Assembly: GCA_036785375.1 (NCBI GenBank)
Contig: JAWMAR010000189.1
Span: 3,162,001 to 3,226,000, forward strand
Length of the DNA stretch: 64,000 nt
Source of the DNA: Leucoraja ocellata
Taxonomy: Eukaryota
Direction: 5' to 3'
In this document: one piece after another, positions 881 to 56,948 of the stretch
Numbering within the stretch: position 1 is the first letter of the stretch
How the letters are laid out: every line of letters begins with the position of its first letter
Notes under the pieces: generated by a model
The model's database searches: none
What the model saw: only the letters and a program-made list of their open reading frames with translations
What the model was told of the DNA's origin: nothing
Program-made: the position numbers and the translations under genes

Positions 881-1689
881 AGGCGTAGTTTAGTTCAGTT
901 TACTTGAGAGATGCAGGGATGCCTTTAGGCTCCTGGAACTTGTAATACCCCCATCCCTTCACCGACCTTCGCCACCTCCTAGTAACTCAGTGGAATGGAG
1001 GATGAAGTTACCTGATGTGCTCGGTAGGTTTTGTTGTCAGTGCCATTTTGATTCTGCTCTCTGCCAGAAACCTGTGGGATCAAAGCCATCCCATCTTGTC
1101 ACTGGATGACACAAAGTGCTGGAGTAACTCAGTGGGTCAGGCAACGTCTACGGGGAAGATGGATAGAGCAGCAGGGATCACAGAGAAGGAGGAGTGAGAG
1201 AGGTGTCTCACAGAGCTCCGAAACAAAACTAAACCAAACCTTGTACAATGGGCAAAACCAGGGCAAGTTGATTACTTTTTAAAGATTGGGTGACTTTTAA
1301 TTACTTTGGAGCGAATTAACGCGAGCATTTTGTACACAGAGGTGGAGCAGTCCTAATCTATTGTGGACGTACTGTGATTTAAGATAACGTTGTGTCCTCT
1401 TTTTATTGATTATACAAGAAGCATCCATTTATAAATGACTGCCAGCTTTTTTAAAGCAATTTTTGTTATTGGCACTCAAACAGCCACTAACTGGAGACGC
1501 GCTGCTCGGAAGTGGCTCGGGGCCATTTTAGCTCATCTCACGCTGGTGTCCCACACAATAGGTCTCTGGACTTACGCCTAGACTCTGCAATGATTACAAC
1601 AACAACATCCAACCTGACTGTCAGCTCCATTATTGAAGGCTAGCAGTCTGGAACGTTTCCCCTGTGGACAGTGACACAGTCTCTGAGCA

Positions 1690-1915
1690 TCAGGTAAGGT
1701 GAAGCCCAACCTAAATTGGAGGTACAGCACCTGATATTTCGCTAGGACAGCTTACACCACAGCTGTATGAACATTGACTTCTCTCTGTTGCTTTCTTGTT
1801 ACCTTCTCCCACTAACAATGATCTATTCTACATTTTCCTTGATATCCATTTCCATTGTCCTGTTTTCATACCTTACACTTCCTTATCTATGCACCTCCCT
1901 CTGCCCTGACATCAG
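1690..1915 (+). mobile_element. Degraded Penelope-like element 3' part (GIY-YIG end plus UTR)
   Basis: aaattggaggtacagcacctgatatttcgctagg resembles KLEEQHLIFRLG of the copy at 46733. Confidence 0.7.
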
Positions 1916-3056: not shown

Positions 3057-3147
3057 GACACAAAATGCTGGAGTAACTCAGCGGGTCAGGCAGCGTCTCT
3101 GGAGAGAAGGAATAGGCGACGTTTCGGGTCGGAACCCTTCTTCAGGC
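3057..3147 (-). mobile_element. Penelope-derived short repeat with hammerhead motif
   Basis: gacgtttcgggtcggaacccttcttcag is the reverse of CTGAAGA-stemII-GAAACGTC. Confidence 0.8.
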
Positions 3148-3828: not shown

Positions 3829-4200
3829 CAGTGGTTCCAACCTTTATTAGCTCATGGCCCCCTTGGGGTCTTTTAATTTTTCCTTCCCCCCCCCCCCCCC
3901 CGAGACATTATTAGCGGGAAAAAAAGTACTTCAATATTATAATATCTTCCATAAAAATATCAGTGTCTAGTAATTGCACATATATTCTCTTTTATTCTAT
4001 GCCACAAACATCAAAAATATTTCAACTACATAGATTTAAATTTATTACAACTGAAATTTAGGAGGCAACAGGGTGGTAGCTCTGTGGCCCCTTTCATTGA
4101 ACCTGTGGGCCCCTAAATCCCCAAATTTGTCTGTGACCCCCTGAAATTAGCCATGGTAATTGGTCATTTGCCCAATAGCAAATTTGGTTGGGAATCACTG
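3829..4200. mobile_element. Non-autonomous hAT (Charlie-like) DNA transposon
   Basis: TIRs cagtggttccaacc / ggttgggaatcactg; perfect 8-bp TSD CTGTAGCC at 3821-3828 and 4201-4208. Confidence 0.9.
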
Positions 4201-4343
4201 CTGTAGCCTGCCATCATGAGGTAGGTCTCTGGGAAGTTCATAAAGCACTCATTTACATTGGTCCGACATCATTCTCATCGTTAATTATCACCACCAACTC
4301 ATCAACTCACCCACACACAGTGGCCAATTAAATTATCATCCGT

Positions 4344-5097: not shown

Positions 5098-5634
5098 TAC
5101 CTAAGGTCAGGATTGAACCCAGGTGCCTGGCATTGTAAGACAGTGGCTATCCCCGGTGTATCACCCAGTAACAGTGAGGTACTTTAACGTCGCAAGAAAG
5201 GGGATACAAAGACGGGGGGAAAAGTCGTTGGGGAACCAGAAACAAAGAGCAAGTCAAGAGTCGGAAAAGTACCAACACTCACATTAGCCAGAGCTGAACT
5301 ACAACATAGAGCTTTCAATTATTCCAACGCTATTAAGTTATCGACAGGATTATTTTGTGATATCTCCTGTTACTTGGGTATTTTCCAAAAAAAGTCTGTC
5401 TTGTGCAGATTAGATTTTGTCTTTGCCTCTCTTGTTAAACACAACCCGTTTTGAGTTACAGTGGCAGTGAGCAGGGAGATCCAGTTTCTGCTAATGGGAG
5501 GCATTAAGCTTGGCATGAAGCTTCACGGATCTGCTCTCGAGAGTCTGCTCAGCCACAAACCAGGGAAGTTGGGAAGCCATCCAACACCAAAATATCCTTC
5601 CAGTTATTGAGCAAGAAATCAAATACCTTTGTGG

Positions 5635-5900
5635 GGGAGATGGGGAGGGTGTGTAATCTGCATGAGGGGTACTGTAGGGAGAGGCGTGGGGGAGAAGGGG
5701 GTGAAGAGGGGATGAAGGAGAGGGGAGGAAGAGAGGGAGGGGAAGGGGCAACGGGAGGGGGGGAGGAAGGGGAGAGTGGGCGACGGTGAGGGGAGGAGGA
5801 GTGTGAGGGGAGGAGGGGAAGGGAGGAGGAGAGGAGGAGGAGGAGAGGAAGGGGGGGTGGAGGTGGGACAGGGAGGGGATGGGGAAAGGAAGAGGGGAAT
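5635..5900 (+). repeat. GA-rich polypurine low-complexity tract
   Basis: nearly all G/A with many G-runs. Confidence 0.9.
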
Positions 5901-5974
5901 ATCTATGAGGGGAACGTGACTGAGGAAATTGGGCATGATGTAGTGTTGAAACAATTGGGCTTTAAAATGTCTGG

Positions 5975-6362
5975 GAAGGAACTGCAGTTTACACTGAAGA
6001 CAGACACGAAATGCTGGAGTAACTCAGCGGGTCAGGCAGCATCTCTGGAGAAAAGGAATAGGTGATGTTTCGGGTCAAGAACCTTCTTCAGACGGAGAGT
6101 CAGGGGAGAGGGAACAGAGAGAGATGAAAAGGTGCAAAGAATAAATGAATGAAACATATGCAAAAAGACAGATCAAAGCCAGCAACAATGATCAAGGAAA
6201 GGTGGAGCCCACAATGGTACATTGTTGGCTGTGGAGAAGGTGATAATGAGTGATGCAAAGAGTGAAACTCAGCAGAACGACAGTGAAACTAGTAGGAAGG
6301 CTAGGGTGATGGGAGAGGGAGGGGATGCAAGGTTTACTTGAAGTTAGAGAAATCAATATATG
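5975..6362 (-). mobile_element. Penelope-like element 3' end
   Basis: short repeat plus UTR ending ttacttgaagttagagaaatcaatat (reverse of NIDFSNFK*). Confidence 0.8.
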
Positions 6363-8120: not shown

Positions 8121-8724
8121 CCTCCATCCACTCCCCAGGATAACAAAACCCAAGAGAGAGAAAGCGGATGACTTTGAGACAACTCCCACTCACCTCTTCC
8201 TCACACACCTTAAACTATCAGCTGCCACCTGTGGAGAATCCAAAATGCAGACAATTTCTGAATTACACACACACACGCACACATTTCAATTTAAAAAAAA
8301 AATCCATTATGGAGTCATGAGCATTGAAGACAAAACCGTCATTTGGAGATCATTCTTGAGAGCAATGCACCATGTGATTCAATAAGCACTTTAGTACCAT
8401 ACCGTTGCATGTCATTAGTCAGTGGAGGATGAGCTCGAAGCACACATTTTGACATATAATTCCTCACTGAAATGTGACCATGAAGCGACTCATTAAGTCT
8501 GCCGGCAGTGAAAAACAAATTTGGTTGTGTCATTTGCCTTTCAAATTCTACCTTGTCGCCAGGGATCCACACGTTCCTCTCTTCGTAGGAAAGGACCCTC
8601 ATTCTGTTTTTTGCATTAAACCCAGCTTCAGACCTCGACTGATCCCAGAATCCAGAGTCAGGTCCAGGAATAAAAGGTGACACATTTAGAAAGACCCAAC
8701 AAAGACCAACACAGTCTGTTGAGG

Positions 8725-11976: not shown

Positions 11977-12101
11977 AAGAAGGAACTGCAGATGCTGGAA
12001 AATCGAAGGTAGACAAAAATGCTGGAGAAACTCAGCGGGTGCAGCAGCATCTATGGAGCAAAGGAAATGGGCGACGTTTCGGGTCGAGACCCTTCTTCAG
12101 G
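11977..12101 (-). mobile_element. Penelope-derived repeat with intact hammerhead core
   Basis: gacgtttcgggtcgagacccttcttcag. Confidence 0.85.
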
Positions 12102-15045: not shown

Positions 15046-15147
15046 TTATATCTGGATTATAAAGGTATTTATAATCCAGATATTTATTCAGGTATTTATA
15101 ATCCAGATTATAATCCAGGTATTTATAATCCAGACCTCACCAGGGAC

Positions 15148-15728
15148 TTGGTGAGACCACACCTGGAGTATTGCGTGCAGTTTTGGTCTCCAAATCTGAG
15201 GAAGGACATTATTGCCATAGAGGGAGTGCAGAGAAGGTTCACCAGACTGATTCCTGGGATGTCAGGACTGTCTTATGAAGAAAGACTGGATAGACTTGGT
15301 TTATACTCTCTAGAATTTAGGAGATTGAGAGGGGATCTTATAGAAACTTACAAAATTCTTAAGGGGTTGGACAGGCTAGATGCAGGAAGATTGTTCCCGA
15401 TGTTGGGGAAGTCCAGGACAAGGGGTCACAGCTTAAGGATAAGGGGGAAATCCTTTAAAACCGAGATGAGGAGAACTTTTTTCACACAGAGAGTGGTGAA
15501 TCTCTGGAACTCTCTGCCACAGAGGGTAGTTGAGGCCAGTTCATTGGCTATATTTAAGAGGGAGTTAGATGTGGCCCTTGTGGCTAAAGGGGTCAGGGGG
15601 TATGGAGAGAAGGCAGGTACAGGATACTGAGTTGGATGATCAGCCATGATCATATTGAATGGCGGTGCAGGCTCGAAGGGCCGAATGGCCTACTCCTGCA
15701 CCTAATTTCTATGTTTCTATGTTTCTAT
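15148..15728 (+). mobile_element. Young 5'-truncated CR1 LINE with open ORF2 C-terminus (15148-15630)
   Basis: LVRPHLEYCVQFWSP...QRRFTRLIPG..LSYEERL..LGLYSLEFRRLRGDLIE..FFTQRVVNLWNSLP; (ctatgttt)n tail. Confidence 0.97.
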
Positions 15729-16189: not shown

Positions 16190-16372
16190 GGACACAAAAA
16201 CCTGGAGTAACTCAGCAGGTTGTGCGGCACCTTTGGCAAAAAGGAATAGGTGGCGTTTTGTGTCGAGACCCAAAGAAGAAAGGTCTGAAGAAGGGTCTCG
16301 ACCTGAAACGTCACCTATTCCTTTTCACCAGAGATGCTGCCTGAATCGCTGAGATACTCCAGCTATTGGTGT
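16190..16372. mobile_element. Head-to-head Penelope repeats; plus copy with hammerhead motif at 16281-16316
   Basis: aggt-ctgaaga-agggtctcgacct-gaaacgtc-acct. Confidence 0.85.
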
Positions 16373-40621: not shown

Positions 40622-40845
40622 AGGTAGACACAAAATTCTGGAATAACTCAGCGGGTCAGGCAGCATCTCTGGAGAAATAGGGTGGGTGACGTTTCGGGTG
40701 GGGACCCTTCTTCAGACACACTGTGTGTCCCGACCCGAAATGTCACCCATCCTTTTTGTCCAGAGATGCGGACTGACCGTCTGAGTTACCCCAGCACTTT
40801 TGTGTCTATCTTTGGCATGAACCAGCATCTGCAGTTCTTTGTTTC
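40622..40845. mobile_element. Head-to-head pair of Penelope repeats
   Basis: minus copy 40622-40717, plus copy 40727-40845. Confidence 0.85.
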
Positions 40846-44557: not shown

Positions 44558-44783
44558 TGCCCCTGTCCCACTGAGGAAACCTGAACGGAAACCTCTGGAG
44601 ACTTTGCGCCCCACCCAAGGTTTCCGTGCGGTTCCCGGAGGTTGCAGGTGGTTGCCGGAGGTTGCAGGTGGTGGAAGCAGGCAGGGAGACTGACAAAAAC
44701 CTCCGGGAACCGCACGGAAACCTTGGGTGGGGCGCAAAGTCTCCAGAGGTTTCCGTTCAGGTTTCCTAAGTGGGACAGGGGCA
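44558..44783. mobile_element. 226-bp palindromic Harbinger MITE
   Basis: same family as 38765, opposite orientation; TAA TSD at 44555-44557 and 44784-44786. Confidence 0.95.
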
Positions 44784-45233: not shown

Positions 45234-45410
45234 GGACACAGAAATGCTGGAGTAACTCAGCGGGACGGGCGGCGTCTCTGGAGAGAAGGAACGGGTGACG
45301 TTTCGGGTCGAGACCCTTCTTCAGACTGGTTAGGGATAAGGCAATCGAGGGATTATAGACAATGGAAAGATGTAGAGAGATAAAGAACAATGAATGAAAG
45401 ATATGCAAAG
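45234..45410 (-). mobile_element. Penelope-like 3' end with intact hammerhead core
   Basis: gacgtttcgggtcgagacccttcttcagact. Confidence 0.85.
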
Positions 45411-46732
45411 TGATTGGTCAATTCAGGAGAGGAGGGGTTGATTGGAAGATGGTTCAGAAAGGGAAGAGAAAGGTGGAGTCCCTCCACACTTCCATCCATC
45501 ATCAGGAAAGACCCAGGGCCCTCCGTTTCTTCCTAAAATAGAGACTCAACGCAGCTGCTCTCCTGAAGAACGGTCCTGATCCAAGACGGCATTTGTCCAT
45601 TCAAGTTCAAGTGAGTTTAGTGTCATGTGTCCCTGACAGGACAATGATATTCTTGCTTTGCTTCAGCACACAGAACATAGTAGGCATTTACTACAAAACA
45701 GATCAGTGTGTCCATATACAGGTACCATATTATAAATATATATTCCCTTCACAGATGCTGATGGCAGACACAAAATGCTGGAGTAACTCAGTGGGACAGG
45801 TGAGAAGGAATGGGTGACGTTTCGGTCCGGGGCCCTTCTTCAGACTGAGAGTCTGCCTGTCCCACCTAGGTTCCTCCAGCAGTTTAGTTTATTAGGAGAC
45901 ATAGCATAGAGGTTAAACCACTCACTTTCCTGGCTTCAAGTCACTTTCTCTCCCAAACATTAAGCTACTCTGCAAATTCAAATCTCTCAAAAAAGAAAAT
46001 CCTGCCTGGATTCCAGCTCGGAAAGCTGCTGAAATTTGTCTTGCCACTGAATTCTAGCAATTCCGTACAGATAAGGTGGCTTTGCTTGTACATTCATGCG
46101 AATCTTGCTAGTCAAATCAAAACTTCAAACAGTGCAGTTGTATTTTAATCTGTCAAGGCCAGAGCGAAGAGCTTCCAGCTCAGATACAACCGTCACAGAG
46201 GCGTTCCTGTTGCAAACACACAATGAGGAGACTATCAAGGAGGCACGTGAGTGATGGCTATGTTTCATCTCAATATGGGGTGTCCACTTTATTCAAAAGA
46301 AAAGGACAAATACTTTCTTTGTTGAAAGGCTGCGACTAAGGTTCTAATCTCAACCCCCCTGTTTCCTGATCAGATGTTGACTTTTGCAATCAGGGAGACG
46401 AGACAGCAAACACAGCTACAAAAACTTGATAAGAACATTGTCCTTTCTTCAGCAGCGACGAGGAGGGATTGTAAACACTTGTCAACCGCCCTGGTTCGAC
46501 AGGAGCAGAAGCGATGGTGGTTTGTGTGAACAGGTACTCAGCGGACTTATCTGAGCCTTGCAGCTTTTATCCTGGATCAATTGATTCCACGTGTTCCGTG
46601 GCGGTGAAATGGAGTATCCTGTGATGTTCGGCGACCACTCATACCCGTGACAAATGTGCTCAGGGGTGGTGTCAGGTTGGTAAAAGGAAAGCAGTCCAGG
46701 GCTCAGAACTTAAGACGGCCACTCCTTTCAAG

Positions 46733-47232
46733 CATCCGCTGCTCTGGATGTCAGCAGATCTACATCGGTGAGACCATGCGGAGGCTGGGCGATCGTTTCG
46801 CCGAACACCTCCGCTCGGTCCGCAATAAACAACCTGACCTCCCGGTGGCTCAGCACTTCAACTCCCCCTCCCATTCCGTATCAGACCTCTCTGTCCTGGG
46901 TCTCCTCCATGGCCAGAGCGAGCAACACCGGAAATTGGAGGAACAACACCTCATATTCCGCTTGGGGAATCTGCATCCTGGGGGCATGAACATTGAATTC
47001 TCATAATTTTGTTAATCCTAGCCATCTCCTCCCCTTCCTCAGCCCTCGGGCTCCGCCTTTTTCCTTTCTTCTCCCCCCCCCCCCCCCCCAACCCCCATCA
47101 GTCTGAAGAAGGGTTTCGGCCCGAAACGTCGCCTATTTCCTTCGCTCCATAGATGCTGCTGCACCTGCTGAGTTTCTCCAGCATTTTTGTGTACCTTCGA
47201 TTTTCCAGCATCTGCAGTTCCTTCTTAAACAC
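46733..47232 (+). mobile_element. 5'-truncated Penelope-like element: GIY-YIG endonuclease C-terminus (to 47006) plus pLTR with hammerhead motif
   Basis: IRCSGCQQIYIGETMRRLGDRFAEHLRSV...PVAQHFNSPSH...RKLEEQHLIFRLGNLHPGGMNIEFS*. Confidence 0.95.
47103..47130 (+). ncRNA. Minimal hammerhead ribozyme motif in the Penelope pLTR
   Basis: CTGAAGA-A-GGG(tttcgg)CCC-GAAA-CG-TC: both catalytic boxes, helix II and a GUC triplet; activity untested. Confidence 0.65.
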
Positions 47233-47369
47233 TCCTTTCAAGCTTCTTGCAAGTTTCACTGAGGGAAAGTGGAAAGATCCGGCACAAAATGGGTTTTCGT
47301 GGTGTTCGAGTGGGAAGTCATTGCAAATCGCTGCAAATACATGCAGAGTTTGATATCCGGAGTGAATGT

Positions 47370-47810
47370 AGAGGCACACTGTCTTTTATCCAGAGTAGGG
47401 GAATCGAGGACCAAAGGACATTGGTTCAAGGTGAAGGGGAAAAGATTTAATAGGAATCCAAGGGGTAACTTTTTCACACAGAGGGTGGTGGGTGCATGGA
47501 ACAAGCTGCCAGAGGAGGTAGGTGAGGCTGGGACTATGCCATCGTTTAAGAAACAGTTGGACAGGTACATGGATCAAAGGTACATGGATCAGGGTTTCGG
47601 CCCGAAACTTTGCCTCTTTCCTTCGCTCCATAGATACTGTCGCACCCGCTGAGTTTCTCCAGCATTTTTGTGTACCATGGATAGGACACGTTTGGAATGT
47701 TATGGACCAAGCGAGGGCAAGTGGGAGTAGAGTAGCTGGGACATTGGTGGCTGGTGTTGGGCAAGTTGGGCCGAAGGGCCTGTTTTCACACTGTACCACT
47801 CTATGACTCT
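47370..47810 (+). mobile_element. HER1-type CR1 3' end with a nested Penelope repeat (47591-47676)
   Basis: GESRTKGHWFKVKGKRFNRNPRGNFFTQRVVGAWNKLPEEV. Confidence 0.9.
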
Positions 47811-52764: not shown

Positions 52765-53095
52765 AGTAACCCTTGCATCCCCACTTTCCATCCCTCCCTC
52801 ACCCGTCGTACCAGCTTCAAAGTCATCTTGTTGAGTCTCATTGTTTGTAACTCATTCTCACCTAGCACACAGCTAACAACGGCCTGTCTTCTTTAACATC
52901 ATTACTTTTTTGCATATCTTTCATTCATTCATTCGTTCTATCTCTCTCTCTCTCTCTACATCACCGTCTATATCACTTCTTTCCCTTTCCCCTGACTCTT
53001 AGTCTGAAGAAGGGTCACGACCCGAAACGTCACCTATTCCTTTTCTCCTGACTTTAAATCTTTGGTTTAAACCAGCATCTGCTGTTCCTTCCTAC
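52765..53095 (+). mobile_element. Penelope-like 3'UTR with intact hammerhead core (53004-53031)
   Basis: ctgaagaagggtcacgacccgaaacgtc. Confidence 0.85.
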
Positions 53096-55184: not shown

Positions 55185-55872
55185 CTTTGTTGCAAATCTT
55201 TCATTCATATAATCTGTATCTCTCTACATCATCGTCTATATCTTTTGTTTCCCTTTCCCCTGACTCTTAGTCTGAAGAAGGGTCTCGACCCGAAACGTCA
55301 CCCATTCCTTTTCTTCAGAGATGCTGACTGACCCGTTGAGTTACTCCAGCTTCTTGGGTACCTGCAGTTTTCTCTGATACGTTTGTTCCACATACCAACT
55401 AGCCTCTGTGTGGAAAATATTGCCCTGCAGGTCCCTTTTAAACTTTCCCCTTCTCACCTTAAATCTTCACCCTCTAGTTTTTATTGCCACAGTTCCATTA
55501 TGTTCTGACCACAGGAGGCAACGTGTTTACCCCAAGCCACCGAATTAAGCCACATTTATTAAGACGGAGGCACAAGGGACTGCAGATGCTGCAATCTTGA
55601 GCACAAAGCAAACAGCTGGAAGGGACACAAAGTGCTGGAGTAACTCAGCGGGTCAGGCAGAATCTCCGGAGAACAGGGATAGGTGGCGTTTCTGGTTGGG
55701 ACGTTTCTTCGGACTGATTGAGGGGAGGGGGAGTGGAGAAAGCTAGAAGAGTGGTGAGGGCAGGGCAAATCCCAGCAAGTGATAGGTGGATACAGTCGAG
55801 GGGAGGAGGGGTTGGACAGGTAGATAGTTGGACAAAGTCTAGAGATGAGGAGAGAAAAAGTGCGAGGTAAGG
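55185..55872. mobile_element. Two Penelope 3' ends in inverted orientation (55185-55370 plus, 55570-55872 minus)
   Basis: intact core at 55272-55299. Confidence 0.8.
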
Positions 55873-56466: not shown

Positions 56467-56948
56467 TAGTGGGAGAGTCTAGGACTAGAGGTCACAGCCT
56501 CAGAATTAAAGGATGTCCTTTTAGGAAGGAGATGAGGAGGAATTTTTTTACTCAAAGAGGTGGTAAATCTGTGAAATTCTTTGCCACGGAAGGCAGTGGA
56601 GGCCATGTCAGTGCGGTTCCCGGAGGTTGCAGGTGGTTGCCGGAGGTTGCAGGTAGTGGAAGCAGGTGGGGAGACTGACAAAAACCTCTGGGAACCTCCG
56701 GGAACCGCACGGAAACCTTGGGCGGGGCGCAAAGTCTCCAGAGGTTTCCGTTCAGATTTCTTAAGTGGGACAGGGGCATAAGGCAGCGATAGTTAGACTC
56801 TTGATTAGTACGGGTGTCAGAGGTTATGAGGAGAAGGCAAGAGACTGGGGTTGGGAGGGAGAGATAGATCAGCCATGATTGAATGGTGGACTAGATTTGA
56901 TGGGGGCCGAATGGCCTCATTCTACTCCTATCACTTATGACCTTATGA
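56467..56948 (+). mobile_element. CR1 3' end with a left-deleted Harbinger MITE (56611-56778)
   Basis: GESRTRGHSLRIKG; right TIR ...gggacaggggca|TAA. Confidence 0.88.

Follow-up and report, generated by a model that had tools for sequence, protein, structure and literature searches.

The stretch of DNA analyzed here, called the window, is 64,000 nt long and carries at 46734..47229 (+) a 496-bp 5'-truncated Penelope-like insertion, the focal copy. It is bounded on both sides by identical 14-bp duplications (TSDs; 46720..46733 and 47230..47243, +), and we therefore consider it a single insertion. It matches the 3' end of a full-length element encoding reverse transcriptase (RT) and endonuclease (L021), in agreement with the first-pass annotation, which had called the repeat Penelope-derived. 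The insertion contains the last ~90 endonuclease codons, a pyrimidine-rich UTR, a hammerhead motif and a tail. The first of these segments (46734..47006, +) had been described as a GIY-YIG ORF; it is indeed the C-terminal part of such an endonuclease, with 83-93% identity to the best genomic copies, but it is cut at 46734 and lacks RT, and the remaining open frame is flanking DNA. Its Pfam GIY-YIG match reached only E=0.083, and a first look through the genome gave 141,070 candidate matches to this piece. The pyrimidine-rich 3' UTR, or upstream pseudo-LTR (pLTR) part, lies at 47007..47097 (+) and varies among subfamilies. It is followed by a TCAGT (47098..47102, +) at a hot spot of 5' ends, which is a candidate initiator or, in a rival view, a 3' splice site. 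The hammerhead motif consists of the CUGAAGA box with an extra A (47103..47110, +), invariant across five subfamily consensuses, a helix II of 4 bp with a tetraloop (47111..47122, +) deduced from sequence and pairing analysis, and the GAAA box with a palindromic ACGU (47123..47130, +), which in the modelled geometry would form helix III only as a dimer. Cleavage is predicted to occur after C47130 (+), and the 2-bp 3' strand of helix I (47131..47132, +) pairs with 47101-47102. Further downstream, a predicted stem-loop (47150..47214, +) that is kept between subfamilies is a candidate RT-binding region, with a fold z of -1.38 that is not significant, and an optional tail (47195..47232, +) extends between two preferred 3' ends at about +91 and +130 from CUGA. 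Elsewhere in the window, frames at 15046-15630 and 47263-47573 have no Pfam support and presumably resemble the C-terminal end of a CR1/L2-type LINE, a short module of the Penelope-like element (PLE) is inserted at 47591, and a MITE-like element with long terminal inverted repeats, recognized from the sequence and its translations, recurs at 44560-44780, ~25965-26040, 38750 onward and ~56620-56790.

The motif at 47103-47130 had been interpreted as a minimal dimer-type hammerhead with an extra nucleotide after A9. This was borne out, as it displays all the traits that Cervera and de la Pena give for minimal hammerhead ribozymes (min-HHRs) of PLEs: one nucleotide placed after position 9 and before 10.1, G10.1-C11.1 and a palindromic 15.2-16.2 (PMC4209133). 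Helix II had been drawn as GGG/CCC with a 6-nt loop and was redrawn here as 4 bp, in which GGGU pairs with either ACCC or GCCC, capped with a tetraloop. Among 50 intact cores, helix I had 2 bp in 34, 0-1 bp in 11 and at least 3 bp in 5. Searching the window with the hammerhead families of Rfam gave no match at E<=5. Folding did not yield the hammerhead as a monomer, with stabilities no greater than those of shuffled sequences (z -1.38 to +0.05), and the modelled active dimer lay 14.9-30.2 kcal/mol above the best fold in a calculation that ignores tertiary contacts and is without an active-ribozyme control fold. A permuted fold cleaving at the NUC just before AGU, which would produce the same 5' edge, was rejected by inspection, with a helix III of 1 bp and a mismatched 3-mer as helix I. 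Published min-HHRs are described as cleaving weakly, even as dimers (PMC4209133); cleavage by hammerhead dimers is credited to Lunse et al. 2017 in a review (PMC6765202).

To count the module, a profile was built from strict matches; it detected 43 copies across the window and none in the reversed sequence, close to the first estimate of ~40. The two-box pattern matched 10 times, compared to 0.00 expected from 100 shuffles, as anticipated for the ~10 copies said to keep both boxes, and 9 of the 43 copies carried an intact core, for which the descriptor demanded the two boxes together with G10.1-C11.1, pairing throughout helix II, a palindromic spacer (ACGU in these copies) and UH. Besides the focal copy, intact cores were present at 53004..53031 and 55272..55299 (+), and at 3118..3145, 12073..12100 (helix I of 1 bp), 33423..33450 (GUU, helix I of 1 bp), 34113..34140 (second subfamily, with native upstream UTR and an ORF end at 34505-34623), 40688..40715 (arm of a head-to-head pair) and 45297..45324 (-). 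The copy positions given initially were thus recovered, except that the copy at 16285..16312 (+), also an arm of a head-to-head pair, keeps both boxes with C11.1 changed to U. In a 1 Mb sample, assembled from 100 pieces of 10 kb each that were placed at round coordinates of larger contigs, the profile search found 440 copies and none in reversed sequence; the core descriptor found 41 intact cores (~9%) and none in the control. Module density was 4.4±3.5 per 10 kb, which extrapolates to ~1.5 million modules genome-wide if this density holds, and to ~140,000 intact cores. The exact GUC-bearing pattern alone matched 38,324 times in the 3.44-Gb assembly with no match in the control, and the very high copy number initially proposed is upheld. 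The observation of a repeated hammerhead-bearing module is therefore real, with the corrections given above.

Conservation of the motif was assessed between and within subfamilies. Clustering placed 188 of 226 aligned copies into groups of at least 5 and gave five subfamily consensuses. Of the 23 positions in the core and helix II, 2 differed between these consensuses, compared to 21 of 65 positions downstream (Fisher p=0.029); the core is thus better conserved than its flanks, the opposite of the pattern that the first-pass annotation had named as refuting. The segment +47..+78 was also well conserved, with 5 of its 32 positions variable between subfamilies. The GGG/CCC pairs, said to persist while loops vary, are kept by being unchanged: among 16 sequences, a two-sided change occurred in one of 6 pairs and in none of the 4 pairs of helix II, a level reached by 320 of 500 shuffles, and the changes in helix II were one-sided with pairing preserved (U-A to U-G). 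In individual copies, G12, which lies in a CpG, was changed to A in 54/220 copies compared to 37/221 at a control CpG, and C15.2 and G16.2 decayed likewise (43/218 and 44/218); the decay of G12 is neutral, at the CpG rate. At non-CpG positions of the core, 93/1993 (4.7%) were changed compared to 337/4857 (6.9%) in the 3' region, in copies that were chosen by a match to the CUGA box, and this lower rate could reflect some selection. Plausibly, the hammerhead motif is under selection in master elements. Decay has affected most copies, which are unlikely to cut anything.

L021 is a complete partial tandem composed of a truncated pLTR, the module, the tail, the ORF region and a second pLTR. Its long frame and that of a second locus (L022) match RVT_1, the latter also GIY-YIG, all of them weakly (RVT_1 E=1.5e-5, GIY-YIG E=0.0069, both below the Pfam cut-offs); homologues carry PF00078 and PF01541, and among the 120 matches listed the named homologues of highest identity (62-69%) belong to sharks and rays, which makes a cartilaginous fish the probable host. 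The arrangement of an EN+ PLE, RT followed by a C-terminal GIY-YIG endonuclease in one ORF, is thereby present. The linker in the L021 ORF, C-x4-C-x2-C, fits the CX2-5CxxC linker that precedes the endonuclease in Neptune and is reported to be shared by Naiads (PMC8557442). Further PLE traits were the pLTR partial tandem itself, two 3' ends ~39 nt apart and head-to-head inverted copies, the arms of which account for 140 of 483 copies and which are a known PLE arrangement (PMC8557442, PMC3846280). All five subfamilies include copies with native upstream PLE sequence, and in the youngest copies that bear an ORF the cleavage triplet is GUU instead of GUC, as seen in 9 of 9 motif matches located directly after long ORFs (L021-L030). 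Combined, these results indicate that the repeat is the pLTR end of an endonuclease-bearing PLE family with a minimal type I hammerhead motif. This motif shares the diagnostic traits of the PLE min-HHRs on record, among them the occurrence as many dispersed single copies from truncated elements, and is thus of a kind already described (PMC4209133).

Several features of individual loci were recorded. In the L021 tandem, the motif of the upstream pLTR (4144-4172) lacks G12 and that of the downstream pLTR (8368-8396) is intact, both reading GUU; a tandem array of ~39-nt units occupies ~5330-5990 within the ORF region, and stops break the N-terminal region. In the upstream flanks of L197 and L220 and at 1381-1884 (-) of L158, part of the ORF start continues head-to-tail into a new module start or into the ORF end, which suggests template jumps.

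A second ribozyme motif was found in the window. An HDV-like fold at 25271-25340 (+) closely resembles the mammalian CPEB3 ribozyme in its sequence, and the Rfam CPEB3 model matched at 25261-25338 with 33.8 bits compared to a cut-off of 35; the cut-off was exceeded by 56 of 59 scored genome matches (L031-L060 set). Two of the loci, L050 and L057, are especially near the Rfam CPEB3 consensus. The matches stand at the head of elements with unrelated upstream flanks, many of which continue with an APE-type endonuclease frame. The motif belongs to another retroposon, a non-LTR retrotransposon of APE type that also has short derivatives. Immediately after the HDV-like head, a PLE fragment has inserted at ~25342-25605 (+) and is accompanied by a 10-bp duplication; helix II and the palindrome of its hammerhead are both disrupted. 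It is therefore through insertion that the two ribozyme motifs came to lie side by side.

We then considered where the copies begin and end. After removing 24 of the 483 copies because they do not reach the 3' part, 177 of the 459 copies of all ages started at about -10..+3, 193 started at +4..+67 and 89 kept a pyrimidine-rich upstream sequence, as judged by a proxy test that 7.5% of random 30-mers pass. In a young subfamily (61 copies, that is 64 hits minus 3 tail-only pieces), 20 copies started at -7..0, 31 at +2..+55 and 10 further upstream; the focal copy was counted among the last, its alignment break giving -78 and its true start being -369. Simulated copies gave 0/199 false hot-spot calls. 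At the other side, 3' ends clustered near +88..+97 and +127..+134 from the C of CUGA. These two clusters match the optional 30-40 nt tail published for PLEs (PMC8557442, PMC11167929), and loose read ends were present near both, at 4231-4234 and 4273 of L021. Depth of reads and contigs increased 9- to 180-fold across the 5' edge in three of four RNA runs and ~3-fold in the fourth, in material whose species may differ. Over 3768-4287 of L021, the single-cell run X24 had a strand bias of at least 2-fold in most bins and run X21 was near-even over the module, a comparison for which the library direction is needed. The 5' edge coincides with TCAGT, which was fully matched in 68 of the 95 motifs that retain their native upstream sequence, and the sequence before TCAGT differs between subfamilies. 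At 21 independent loci bearing an ORF start (30 were fetched and duplicates merged), 13 copies reached at least 116 nt upstream, 4 started at -1..+4, 4 at +18..+132 and none at -2..-115. When a cap-derived G was looked for, G was present at the expected position in 8 of 16 cases; an excess of G one base further in resembles, by inspection, inverted-arm and slippage junctions. Short copies had TSDs of 9-19 bp in 22/85 cases compared to 9/416 in a swapped-flank control.

We favour, with a probability of roughly 0.7, the reading that the modules are PLE pseudo-LTR ends and that the short copies are separate, decaying insertions resulting from RT starting internally and running back to the likely 5' end of the RNA. 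The RT of the element would start at either of the two tail sites, as described for the lizard PLE, in which RT initiates internally at tail sites (PMC11167929), and would copy back only 90-130 nt; most events would thus begin in the leader of the element RNA and then run out of template. TCAGT at the edge, promoters internal to the pLTR in PLEs (PMC2377424) and the internal RT starts together lead us to infer that the modules are run-off cDNAs of this leader. TCAGT would be the initiator and the front edge of the hammerhead the RNA 5' end; for a rotifer, the pLTR is described as containing an Inr-like TCACT (PMC3846280). As 13 of the 21 ORF-start loci extend well upstream, the longer ORF-bearing copies would need longer templates, such as read-through transcripts, or strand transfer. 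TCAGT fits the initiator consensus, the comparison with Inr, DPE and MTE consensuses being post hoc. Any action of the hammerhead itself would be confined to tandem transcripts of the element, where it would work in dimeric form assisted by the element protein, and would not extend to host pre-mRNA; the HHR of the lizard PLE is reported to need the element protein for cleavage, not to be required for insertion in vitro and to leave no RNA-seq ends (PMC11167929).

The step that equates the hot spot with a transcription start is tentative, and we judge its chances to be slightly short of even. In D. virilis Penelope, the 3' end of an intron is reported at the front of helix I (PMC4209133) and the start site further upstream, which by analogy would count against a start site at the edge and favour a splice site. 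An extension of the start-site step, which we regard as possible but doubtful, is that the hammerhead core doubles as an internal promoter and that the 90-130 nt leader cDNA is a 'strong-stop' product: its immediate integration would generate the ~1.5 million short modules, and its transfer to the 3' pseudo-LTR copy would allow synthesis to continue into the ORF. If true, this would explain the formation of PLE partial tandems; it is absent from the literature searched. In that literature, which included few subscription journals, no prior report of a 5' hot spot or of PLE hammerheads in cartilaginous fish was found beyond the papers cited.

Other explanations of the edge keep the PLE origin and change the event that ends the cDNA. 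The RNA may extend upstream, with RT stalling or joining the target at the edge through the palindrome TCAG-T-CTGA, a bound protein or the C-rich tract. Some inverted junctions do use short palindromes or microhomology, and the rate of 5' ends is raised across +4..+67 too; however, the hot spot is also present in non-inverted, TSD-flanked copies and is common to subfamilies with different upstream sequence, and cDNAs that pass the edge rarely stop within the next 100 nt, so that we hold stalling to be unlikely. Less probable again is that the edge is a 3' splice site (CAG|T after a pyrimidine tract), in which case splicing would reshape helix I and the cDNAs would end at a splicing intermediate or at a very short first exon. 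A pyrimidine-rich tract with CAG is present in all five subfamilies and in D. virilis an intron end is reported to coincide with the helix I 5' end (PMC4209133). Against this, in the 22 copies with TSDs the duplication lies at or within ~10 nt of the motif, which leaves no common upstream exon, agreement among the loose ends at the edge is just 0.35-0.58 and no GT..AG joint occurs among the 15 joints listed of 150. A lariat branch point lies 20-40 nt upstream of a splice site, and RT would be halted there, not at the edge. A host exon spliced onto CAG|T was ruled out for copies whose TSD reaches the motif.

The remaining proposal, made in the first-pass annotation, was a possible non-autonomous, retrozyme-like family of modules that could cut host pre-mRNA wherever two half-ribozymes pair within a transcript. 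It would draw on the large extrapolated number of intact cores, on two intact cores of one strand that lie 690 nt apart, nearer to each other than any other such pair of the window (33423..33450 and 34113..34140), on the abundance of module reads in RNA runs and on the report that animal retrozymes are pLTR-derived and occur in the sole chondrichthyan sampled (bioRxiv 10.64898/2026.07.22.740005). However, 72-94% of the module reads, from runs whose source species may differ, run on into unrelated flanks and therefore show modules passively carried along in other RNAs rather than transcripts of the element. At distances up to 500 nt, same-strand pairs numbered 68 compared to 65±7 under random placement, no intact same-strand cores at most 1 kb apart were present in the 1 Mb sampled, and the copies were not arranged head-to-tail in tandem units with intact HHRs. 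Copies derived from cleavage products were also rejected, as only 3/459 begin at the +28 cleavage site, with no excess. At this site, the RNA runs listed no pile-up of read begins or ends, in libraries not built for such ends, and no back-joint occurred among the 15 joints listed of 150 from polyA and single-cell libraries. With the TSDs, the inverted pairs and native PLE sequence upstream in all subfamilies, with G12 unprotected and with a helix I of 2 bp in a class reported to be weak even as dimers (PMC4209133), a retrozyme-like family is not supported and cleavage of host pre-mRNA is very unlikely.

As a ribozyme, the motif is of a known kind and of unusual abundance. Its value lies in a fossil record of PLE reverse transcription, with about a million insertions whose 3' ends are fixed at two points and whose 5' ends favour a single one. 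Should this favoured point be the RNA start, the PLE cycle would include a short first cDNA and strand transfer. The 5' hot spot is a modest clue to a poorly understood mechanism, for which an in vitro system exists in the lizard PLE.

Like published PLE min-HHRs (PMC4209133), the copies have a CUGANGA/GAAA core with the same additional nucleotide, G10.1-C11.1 pair and palindrome, are located in the pLTR and are mostly dispersed single copies from truncated PLEs; they differ in a helix II of 4 bp and a helix I of 2 bp, the latter being reported for D. virilis too. The exact matches counted here far outnumber the ~4,000 motifs published for the coelacanth and ~9,000 for Xenopus, and terms for shark or skate are absent from two supplements of that survey. 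Animal non-LTR retrozymes are likewise pLTR-derived and non-coding with a type I HHR, but consist of tandem units each with an HHR, whereas the copies here are solo or inverted and have TSDs (bioRxiv 10.64898/2026.07.22.740005). Pr77/L1TcRz of Trypanosoma cruzi would offer an analogy if promoter and ribozyme overlap at the RNA 5' end, although it is an HDV-type ribozyme in an APE retrotransposon and its promoter activity has been shown, that of the module here being a proposal (PMC3383444). Another parallel is PAc Poseidon of Anolis (Frangieh et al. 2024, PMC11167929), in which the HHR also lies near the junction of pLTR and ORF, two internal RT start sites define the tail and no RNA ends were seen at the cleavage site. 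In contrast to PAc Poseidon as described there, the element here has its ORF start downstream of the tail and a Neptune-like endonuclease linker, and the 5' ends form a sharp hot spot at the edge of the HHR.
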